This document shows, one piece after another, positions 31,763 to 37,837 of a stretch of DNA of 64,000 nt; the stretch's first letter is position 1, and each line of letters begins with the position of its first letter. The position numbers and the translations under genes were made by a program. The notes beneath the pieces are model-generated. The model saw only the letters and a program-made list of their open reading frames with translations. It searched no databases and was not told where the DNA came from. The stretch comes from Escherichia coli. Lineage in GTDB: Bacteria; Pseudomonadota; Gammaproteobacteria; Enterobacterales; Enterobacteriaceae. The stretch lies in assembly GCF_036507355.1 (NCBI RefSeq), contig NZ_AP027877.1; one strand, 5' to 3'.

Positions 31763-31810
31763 TTAAGCCCCCAACTTCTGTTAAAGGAGTTGGGGGAGAT
31801 TTAACGGTTA

Positions 31811-35436: not shown

Positions 35437-36564
35437 TCATTTTGTGTCATAACTTTCTATGACCTGAGAAACCACTGCGTGTGATGTCGCTGCATTGTGA
35501 AAAGCGTAGCGACGGGTCGCCGTGAGTGAATGGTGATTTAGCAGATGGGAAGCGATTGCAATATCCCCGGTCGCCTGTAGTACCCGGGTGGCAAAGGTAC
35601 GGCGCAGGTCATGCATCCGCAGGTTATCAATGTTGGCATCCCGACAAATACGGGCAAAGGTTGCACGCGGATATGCCAGAGGGCGGGCATTGTCGGTTAG
35701 TTGTGGAAAAATGTAAGTTTTGCTGAGCATCAGGTCCTGCTGGCACTGGACAACTGCAATGGCTGGAAGTGCAAGTGGGCAGGTGAAAGGGTGTCCGGAC
35801 TTTGTATCAGGCAGTATGAGTTGATGCATATCCGGGTGCCAGTACTCCCATTTCAGGGTACATACCTCACCAATACGCATCCCCGTATAAAGAGCAAGCA
35901 ATATAGAATCAGCTGCCGGTGTTTGCAGCGCTGTTGCTGCGTTAATAAAGCGCGGGATTTCTGTCGCTGACAGTGTGCGATAGCGAATGTTATTTTCTTT
36001 CAGATAGCGGACATGTGACATCGGGGAATGTGTGATCCATCCAGCACGTACTGCCAGAGAGCATATTTTGGACAATATTGCGAGGATACGGTTTACTGTT
36101 GACGGACGTAATTTTTCCCGTAAGCCAGCAGCATATTGTTCTAGTTCTCCTGCCGTGATGTCGCGAAGTTGCCGCTTGCCCCAGAACGGGCGAACGTAGA
36201 GGTTGAGTTTTGACAACTCTGACTGAGGACTCTTTTTATACAACTGCAAATCCGGTAGCCACAGGTCATTGATGGCCTGTTCCACAGTGAATCGACGGGA
36301 CTGAACAGCAAGGCGATTTTTATCGGCAAGCAGGTTCATCACATGCTGACGGGCATCCTCAATGCAGAGATGAGGGAATTCACCCAGTGTTTCATATATA
36401 CGTTGATTTTTGATGGTGGCGCGAAAGGCCAGCGTGATCCGTTTTGGATATACCAGTGCACGCAGGTTTTGGCACTGAATATCACGGTATTCCTGACAAC
36501 CCGTGAGGGGATGTGGAAGTTGGTGAATTGATTTGTTGCTGAAACGCAGATCCAGAATAGGCAT
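35437..36564 (-). CDS. Second tyrosine recombinase / integrase
   Basis: Catalytic HDLRRTFATRV (HxxR) and TRRYAF (Tyr), plus core-binding-like N-terminal region. Confidence 0.85.
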   Translation of the reverse strand: MPILDLRFSNKSIHQLPHPLTGCQEYRDIQCQNLRALVYPKRITLAFRATIKNQRIYETLGEFPHLCIEDARQHVMNLLADKNRLAVQSRRFTVEQAINDLWLPDLQLYKKSPQSELSKLNLYVRPFWGKRQLRDITAGELEQYAAGLREKLRPSTVNRILAILSKICSLAVRAGWITHSPMSHVRYLKENNIRYRTLSATEIPRFINAATALQTPAADSILLALYTGMRIGEVCTLKWEYWHPDMHQLILPDTKSGHPFTCPLALPAIAVVQCQQDLMLSKTYIFPQLTDNARPLAYPRATFARICRDANIDNLRMHDLRRTFATRVLQATGDIAIASHLLNHHSLTATRRYAFHNAATSHAVVSQVIESYDTK

Positions 36565-36706
36565 CGTATTTCTCCTGTAAATGACACTGGAAAAATACGA
36601 TGTGAGGTTATAGTCTGCCAGTTACAGCTTTCACAGTTCATCAGGTGAAAAATGCTGATTCGGATATAATGGCAACACAATTCCATGTCGCCATTATATT
36701 AAGAAA

Positions 36707-37837
36707 CTACAGTTTCATGATCTTGTTCGCTATTTTTTCGAAGTAAACCTCATTCTTAAGAAGAGTGATATTGTTAGTTTGAACACCCAGACCACTGGAG
36801 GTTGACTGGAAGTTGAGTGAACCACTTATCACGGTGGACTTTCCTGATAAAAATGAAATCAACTCCTTGGAAGATGGTGCCCACTCAGGGTTTAAGAGTA
36901 ATGCAATGTAGATATATGTCTTACGAAGCAATTGTTCGATATCTTTTTTATACCCCGTAGTGTTTTGCTTACCTTTAATGCAAATTGATTTGATTATGAA
37001 CTCATCAGGGCTGGTTAAAGGCGTTTTAAACTTATTCAGTGATCCATCGTTATGAATGACTTCATAAGGCAGCATAGATAAAATGATCAATGCAATCATT
37101 TTAGGATGATAAAGGTAGTTATCACGAATGATTTTTCCTGCCTTCATTGTATTGAGTGTTGTTTGAATAAATACAAAAAGATATTCAGAGCAAAAGTAAC
37201 AAAACACAAGCCAGGATAGGTCAATGGCTGGAATGTTAATATCCTTAGGTAGTTTGTTTAGCCAGTATTCAGACTTCAAAAAGGTCCTGATTTCAACAGT
37301 ATATTCATGCATTTTTGCGCTGAAATCAAGCATTGCTACTTGACCTGATTGTTCCGTAACTGTGTGGTCTATAAATGTTAGTGTATTGCACATTTTATCC
37401 AGCGTGTTTTGAAAACAAGAAAGGAGTTCGGCATTATTATTACCATTAACCGCAGATGAAAGTTCAGTTGCAATAAATGCATCCAGTAGCATACAGATTT
37501 TTTTCGGAATGACATTTTTACGGGATTGCTGTGAATAGAAATATACTGCCAGTAAATTAAAGGCAGTGCACTCCTTTTTTAACCATTGTTCGAGCACTGG
37601 GACGTGCTGAAAAAAATTGATATGCTTAGCAGTAGATGCTGATGGAGATAGTACATGAAGAATATCTACAGCAGGCTTCATTTGCAATATTTGATCGGAT
37701 TCGGTAGTCGTCATTAGTTCCAGTAATTGCTGTTCAGAAAATAGTTTAGACAGGTGATCAATGTCTTTTTGGTATTGGTTAAGTTTTTTTAAATTCCCCG
37801 GTACACGGGTTACATTGTTTTTCATTTTCTCGAACAT
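36707..37837 (-). CDS. Hypothetical protein (376 aa), AT-rich orphan
   Basis: Long ORF in visibly AT-rich DNA; no motif recognised. Confidence 0.55.
   Translation of the reverse strand: MFEKMKNNVTRVPGNLKKLNQYQKDIDHLSKLFSEQQLLELMTTTESDQILQMKPAVDILHVLSPSASTAKHINFFQHVPVLEQWLKKECTAFNLLAVYFYSQQSRKNVIPKKICMLLDAFIATELSSAVNGNNNAELLSCFQNTLDKMCNTLTFIDHTVTEQSGQVAMLDFSAKMHEYTVEIRTFLKSEYWLNKLPKDINIPAIDLSWLVFCYFCSEYLFVFIQTTLNTMKAGKIIRDNYLYHPKMIALIILSMLPYEVIHNDGSLNKFKTPLTSPDEFIIKSICIKGKQNTTGYKKDIEQLLRKTYIYIALLLNPEWAPSSKELISFLSGKSTVISGSLNFQSTSSGLGVQTNNITLLKNEVYFEKIANKIMKL

Follow-up and report, generated by a model that had tools for sequence, protein, structure and literature searches.

The palindrome between a 376-aa gene (from now on referred to as gene X) and the internal integrase gene of an Escherichia coli pipolin is most likely an ordinary feature, a terminator-type 3' hairpin of the upstream gene, and not an integrase switch. 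The explanation we favour, with moderate confidence, is that the palindrome encodes a sense-strand RNA stem-loop serving as an intrinsic (Rho-independent) terminator and as a protecting hairpin at the 3' end of the gene X transcript. The first-pass annotation had proposed either a terminator or an operator controlling the integrase/AlpA/piPolB transcript. Of these two, the terminator is the better supported, with the caveat that it is the homologues in relatives whose gene X is about 70% identical that fit the terminator pattern, while the operator is unsupported.

The window, meaning the whole 64-kb stretch of DNA that was analysed, represents an E. coli chromosomal pipolin located beside a tRNA Gly-Cys-Leu cluster, and the identical region is annotated in strain L73. 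Read along the minus strand, a 411-aa gene is followed by gene X, the integrase gene, an HTH_17 excisionase-like gene, a 212-aa gene and piPolB. Gene X had initially been called an orphan, a label that turned out to be wrong, as homologues with conserved synteny are found in at least ten enterobacterial genera. These homologues are 88-97% identical in E. coli, Citrobacter, Enterobacter and Intestinirhabdus, about 70% identical in Phytobacter, Salmonella and Edwardsiella, and about 40% identical in Serratia, Lelliottia, Hafnia and a minority of E. coli strains. At every homologous locus the order gene X, IntP2 integrase, HTH gene, gene of about 200-220 aa and piPolB is the same, and core genes give way to cargo genes on the side of gene X facing away from the palindrome. 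The core genes of enterobacterial pipolins have been described as including "2 orphan proteins", and the internal recombinase, named IntP2, has been given only a "secondary role" and no known target site (PMC11551731).

Searches of Pfam, PADLOC, NCBIfam and PDB sequences returned no match that would indicate a function for gene X. Its AlphaFold model is all-helical (mean pLDDT 68.5), and a Foldseek comparison of the model with the PDB gave no fold match at E <= 0.001. Given the lack of database and fold matches, there is no sign that gene X encodes a DNA-binding partner of the palindrome. The region matched nothing in either the phage or the plasmid collection that was searched, ruling out a phage or plasmid origin. 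An 8-bp tandem repeat (GTGAAGTC / GTGAAATC) was observed at the extreme 3' terminus of gene X (window 36707-36730; L005 1790-1842; L006; L009 4112-4137; L010; L030), with two degenerate copies in the window, two copies in C. amalonaticus, three in C. koseri, five in B2C and eight in 2011EL-1370-2. Since the unit length is not divisible by three and TGA occurs in two of the unit's three frames, the C-terminal tail of the gene X product varies by slippage. Two further observations concern the surroundings. In E. coli NCTC9967, a module of a hypothetical protein and an IntSXT-type integrase is present twice, about 25 kb apart and flanking the pipolin (L026 7183-10456 and 32514-34537), an arrangement suggestive of tandem or composite elements at tRNA-Leu. 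In the window, a G+C-rich hairpin (CCCCCAACU-N11-AGUUGGGGG, 31765-31800, minus strand) is found just past the piPolB stop, separating piPolB from a 108-aa ORF that converges on it. Its fold ranks in the top ten of the window for local stability, but no U-run follows it and it was not called as a terminator.

A palindrome of the form ATAATGGC-N16-GCCATTAT is present at 36666-36697, and its coordinates place it between the stop codon of gene X and the start of the integrase on the minus strand, both as originally annotated. The stem had been given as 8 bp; these arms exist, but the figure is too low. Perfect arms extend over 10 bp (ATATAATGGC, 36664-36673 and 36690-36699), and a repeat finder extends them further to 14 nt with one mismatch (93% complementary) around an 8-nt spacer. 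This single DNA mismatch turns into a G.U pair in the minus-strand RNA, the sense orientation of both flanking genes, and this RNA folds into 15 contiguous pairs, including two G.U pairs, around a 6-nt loop. Only 4 of the 15 pairs of this inner stem are G-C, making it A-U rich. The stem begins 7 nt past the UAG stop codon of gene X (minus strand, 36709-36707), and 99 nt separate the end of the hairpin from the integrase ATG (36564-36562). Coordinates of all features are collected in Table 1.

Table 1. Positions of the hairpin, its neighbouring genes and the integrase leader elements in the window.
Feature	Position	Strand	Remarks
Gene X, 376 aa	36707..37837	-	conserved pipolin core gene; hairpin in its 3' untranslated region
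Outer helix, 5' strand UGUAGUUUC	36703..36711	-	contains gene X stop UAG 36709-36707
Inner hairpin	36664..36699	-	5' arm 36699-36685, loop 36684-36679 GGAAUU, 3' arm 36678-36664; encloses both originally annotated 8-bp arms
Conserved core, 10 bp AAUGGCGACA / UGUUGCCAUU around 8 nt	36668..36695	-	kept in all alleles at least 70% identical
Outer helix, 3' strand GAAUCAGCA	36653..36661	-	12-nt linker region, strain-variable
U5 run	36648..36652	-	abuts outer helix; also start of conserved integrase leader
Leader box ATGAACTGTGAAA (consensus ATGARCTGTGAAA)	36629-36641	-	about 65-75 nt upstream of integrase ATG
Integrase-leader hairpin, 17-nt arms	36562..36602	-	CAUCGUAUUUUUCC pairs with GGAGAAAUACGAUG, sequestering Shine-Dalgarno and AUG of IntP2
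Internal tyrosine recombinase, IntP2 type	35437..36564	-	gene downstream of hairpin

The predicted folding energy of the minus-strand RNA is -19.6 kcal/mol, compared with -8.0 +/- 2.5 kcal/mol for shuffled sequences (z -4.66), and none of 200 shuffles folded equally well. The plus strand folds more weakly, at -16.3 kcal/mol. Perfect 10-bp inverted repeats with a spacer of 3-20 nt occur 11 times in the window, whereas dinucleotide shuffles predict 0.94, an enrichment of about 12-fold. Repeats of this kind are thus mostly biological, and the palindrome is not exceptional among them; by raw folding energy it ranks only about 200th of 42,638 44-nt windows. The palindrome is therefore confirmed as real, yet it falls into a common class of feature. 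A 115-aa ORF at 36339-36686 that starts inside the hairpin loop was rejected as spurious, as it overlaps the integrase gene in another frame and the same ATG opens only about 17 codons in L018.

Ten distinct haplotypes were aligned and a consensus fold was derived with RNAalifold. The core AATGGCRRCA-N8-TGYYGCCATT (window 36668-36677 / 36686-36695) is present in all ten haplotypes, which come from at least six genera. At nine of its ten positions the core pairs in 10 of 10 haplotypes, the one exception being a U.U, and four to five of the ten pairs are G-C. Pair 52-67 (alignment columns) is A-U in six haplotypes and G.U in four, while pair 53-66 is A-U in four, G.U in three and G-C in three, a compensatory series passing through a wobble intermediate. 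This covariation rests on few independent events at one or two pairs and is supportive, not conclusive. The first-pass annotation would have been contradicted by a weak fold at an unconserved site; both the folding energy and the conservation point the other way, the fold being strong and the site conserved.

The orientation of the wobble pairs provides a second line of evidence for a function at the RNA level. In all seven E. coli and Citrobacter haplotypes (7/7), the sense fold is more stable than the antisense fold by 5-8.5 kcal/mol, because the non-Watson-Crick positions of the stem are all G.U and never A.C on the sense strand. Such a bias would not be expected from protein recognition of double-stranded DNA.

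Around the inner hairpin, local folding predicts an additional outer helix, and the combined structure ends exactly at the U5 run. The outer helix is weak and interrupted (UGU/GCA and UUC/GAA, 3+3 bp), contributing only about 1.4 kcal/mol to the window total of -21.0 kcal/mol. Totals of -25 to -28.5 kcal/mol are reached in the HKUOPY1, B2C and Citrobacter haplotypes, where substitutions strengthen the helix. Stacked together, the inner and outer helices amount to more than 20 bp with internal loops. The basal pair of the outer helix, 30-88 (alignment columns), appears as U-A, U.G or C-G among haplotypes. From one E. coli strain to another, the inner hairpin of 36 nt is near-invariant, with a single loop change (L025), while the 12-nt linker carries four variable sites. 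One linker variant, CAGAA, breaks a G-C pair of the outer helix and was seen in L004 (XPFI_3_2), L029 (YJR) and PapRG-06-5. The pipolin of XPFI_3_2 appears to be decaying, as gene X and the integrase are each annotated there as two CDS pieces; in YJR, gene X was seen solely as a fragment in a 186-bp locus, and PapRG-06-5 has a gene X annotated at full length (1131 nt).

A neutral inverted repeat, that is, a functionless leftover persisting only because pipolins are young and closely related, would be consistent with most E. coli copies being 95-100% identical overall, with the small number of covariation events and with one allele group dispensing with the element. We nevertheless regard this explanation as improbable. 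The core survives at 70% protein identity of gene X, a divergence at which the non-coding flanks are no longer alignable, it carries a compensatory A-U to G-C change, and its inner stem is near-invariant while the adjacent linker varies. The roughly 12-fold excess of perfect inverted repeats in the window likewise speaks against a chance origin.

The distribution of the hairpin was surveyed in 5,426 complete E. coli genomes. The integrase was identified in 282 of these, in all cases at 95% nucleotide identity or higher, and the hairpin in 244. It occurs on the chromosome in one copy per genome (median 1, at most 2) and is confined to the 244 genomes carrying the pipolin region. With one copy per genome, one in the window and an occurrence restricted to pipolins, a dispersed repeat of the REP, BIME or ERIC type can be ruled out. 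A known RNA family was discarded as well, a scan with the Rfam 15 covariance models giving no match at the site even at E values up to 5.

Nineteen of the 5,426 genomes carry a gene X allele that is only 44% identical. Their integrase protein is 97% identical to that of the window and their leader is the same from TTTTTCACC onward, but no hairpin or terminator-like site was found at the position. In the pipolin of NCTC9967, a hairpin-less allele with a 97% identical IntP2, the palindrome motif was not found anywhere in 40 kb, and the Serratia, Lelliottia and Hafnia loci have neither a hairpin nor a terminator at the equivalent position. The absence of the hairpin next to a 97% identical integrase with the same leader indicates that inheritance of the palindrome is tied to gene X, not to the integrase. 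Homology to the hairpin-less allele resumes only at TTTTTCACC, so that the hairpin is part of the gene X unit, and since the alleles of about 40% identity lack it, the element is dispensable. Its absence in the 19 genomes is the main argument against both an operator of the integrase and a recombination site of IntP2.

An operator, possibly placed over a -10 box (TATAAT in the 5' arm) and bound by a dimeric regulator that would control the integrase/HTH/piPolB transcript, could account for several features of the site. The dyad symmetry is perfect over 10 bp, conservation is higher in the arms than in the 16 nt that separate them, genes for HTH proteins lie nearby, and a -10-like hexamer (TATAAT, TATTAT or TACAAT) is present on the sense strand in all haplotypes. 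It is nonetheless very improbable, being missing from the 19 E. coli genomes just described and leaving the sense-strand orientation of the wobble pairs without an explanation at the level of double-stranded DNA. A promoter at the TATAAT of the 5' arm was ruled out, as none was called on the minus strand at 36600-36740 and no haplotype has a conserved -35 element or TG extension. With 26 bp between their centres, the half-sites lie on opposite faces of the helix, and no other half-site above chance exists in the window. Second copies of the half-site were dismissed on this ground as operator or recombination partners. The originally proposed control of the integrase/AlpA/piPolB transcript thus finds no support in a site that travels with gene X and has neither a predicted promoter nor a second half-site elsewhere in the window.

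A core site of the lox/FRT/dif type, recognised by IntP2 for multimer resolution of the excised pipolin or for module exchange, was considered because of the geometry of the repeat. Its 14-nt arms with one mismatch and 8-nt spacer fit such a site, and like loxP, FRT and dif sites, with inverted arms of about 13-14 bp and a variable 8-bp spacer, it has conserved arms and a spacer that varies (TGGAATTG, TGGAATCT, TGGCATCG or TGCAATAT) and lies beside a tyrosine recombinase gene. Published work also leaves the role and target of IntP2 unassigned (PMC11551731). Unlike those sites, however, the palindrome does not co-occur with the recombinase: NCTC9967 encodes a 97% identical IntP2 and has the site nowhere in its 40-kb pipolin, and the site tracks the divergence of gene X, not that of IntP2. 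The hairpin-less alleles would then have to have lost the function or use another site. Further, the core/cargo boundary lies on the other side of gene X, there is no similarity to the tRNA-Leu att region, and the arms contain strand-oriented wobble mismatches, a bias that recombination leaves unexplained. Taken together, we consider an IntP2 site extremely unlikely. Like the palindrome, integron attC sites are imperfectly palindromic, mark the 3' end of a gene and occur near a tyrosine recombinase; however, inspection of the sequence ruled out this reading, the GTTRRRY / RYYYAAC core motifs being absent. IntP2, moreover, is not IntI, and the upstream gene is a core gene and not a cassette.

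Evidence for termination comes mainly from the relatives with about 70% identical gene X (Phytobacter, Salmonella and Edwardsiella; L018-L021). In these, the hairpin is directly followed by a U-rich tail, TCTATCTTTT (UCUAUCUUUU), and a pattern scan calls the site terminator-like, with a stem of 10 bp including five G-C pairs and an 8-nt loop, at 0.3 such calls expected. In the window, the terminator consensus scan made no call at the hairpin. Here, a U5 run is located 12 nt from the inner stem and next only to the 3+3-bp outer helix, and the stem of the window lineage is longer by four or five outer A-U pairs. The U5 run falls within the conserved integrase leader and is also found in the hairpin-less allele, indicating that it did not evolve together with the hairpin. 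The site resembles the Rho-independent terminators of enterobacteria in having a stable sense-strand stem-loop a few nucleotides past a stop codon with a U-rich run downstream, and the homologue in the 70% relatives fits in stem, loop and U-tail. It differs from them in the window, where the stem is long and A-U rich (4/15 G-C), U5 lies at a distance of 12 nt and the scan makes no call. A search of the literature on pipolins found no transcript mapping.

We hypothesize that RNA polymerase transcribing gene X would stop at the hairpin, and that the IntP2, HTH, orf212 and piPolB genes would thereby be partly insulated from gene X transcription. The textbook stem and U-tail in the 70% relatives point to termination as the ancestral role, and the canonical terminator would then be the ancestral form of the hairpin, the window version being at best leaky. 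Termination in the window is probably leaky because U5 lies 12 nt downstream, touching only the weak, interrupted outer helix. In the window lineage, termination would accordingly be inefficient, with some read-through into the integrase, and the main role of the hairpin may be to protect the gene X message at its 3' end.

Hairpins in polycistronic mRNAs can also act without terminating transcription, as do REP-type stabilisers and RNase III sites such as lambda sib and the intercistronic sites of phage T7. Similarly, the sense-strand hairpin could block 3'-to-5' exonucleases or be processed in the manner of an RNase III site, stabilising the gene X message or splitting it from the integrase message within an X-int-xis-piPolB transcript. 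The RNA-level evidence set out above applies equally to this possibility and to a terminator. The stacked helices of more than 20 bp with internal loops, the window stem without a directly adjoining U-run, and a promoter scan that found no convincing integrase promoter downstream of the hairpin, in keeping with co-transcription, are all in its favour. As in REP-type and RNase III hairpins, a long imperfect RNA duplex lies between co-directional cistrons, with an integrase gene adjoining. Unlike the REP family, the palindrome is single-copy and not dispersed, and unlike sib, which lies downstream of int in lambda, it is located upstream of the integrase gene. A role without termination does not sit well with the textbook stem and U-tail of the 70% relatives, and we consider it rather unlikely.

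Two other elements, both in the integrase leader, are conserved independently of the hairpin allele. The leader hairpin at 36562-36602 was found in all allele groups (E. coli, Phytobacter, Salmonella, Edwardsiella, Serratia, Lelliottia and Hafnia) and comprises 14 consensus pairs, with one compensatory and four wobble changes. Its probable role is to restrain translation of the integrase. The second element, the box ATGARCTGTGAAA, is invariant in 11 of the 11 leaders compared, even amid surroundings that cannot be aligned, and may be a promoter element or a protein-binding site. Both are kept even where the integrase is only 68% identical. Based on this pattern of conservation, the leader hairpin and the box are better candidates for integrase control than the palindrome. 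A metagenome scan with the leader box gave five loci, of which four carried known haplotypes and one was a chance match, and no new haplotypes. In the window lineage, the box also forms a TTTCAC-N10-GTGAAA inverted repeat with the region of the U-run. Comparison of the integrase leader (36565-36660) with L002, L003, L004 and L007 revealed two or three haplotypes, for example GCTGTAACTGGCAGACTATAACCTCACATCG vs ACTGAGACTGGCATACAGTAATCTCGCACCG, with a sharp breakpoint at TTTTTCACC (36645-36652). The leader haplotypes are shuffled relative to those of the hairpin and gene X, indicating that homologous recombination between pipolins is frequent.

The practical value of the finding is small: it would set the end of the gene X transcription unit. 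It also corrects two assumptions, in that the 376-aa gene is a conserved pipolin core gene and that the sequences tied to the integrase are the downstream leader elements. For studies of how the excision and replication genes of pipolins are silenced, these leader elements are better targets than the palindrome, and the natural alleles with and without the hairpin, combined with the same integrase, offer a ready-made comparison. For the biology of pipolins, our analysis suggests that transcription from upstream is only partly kept from reaching the integrase, the excisionase-like HTH gene and piPolB.
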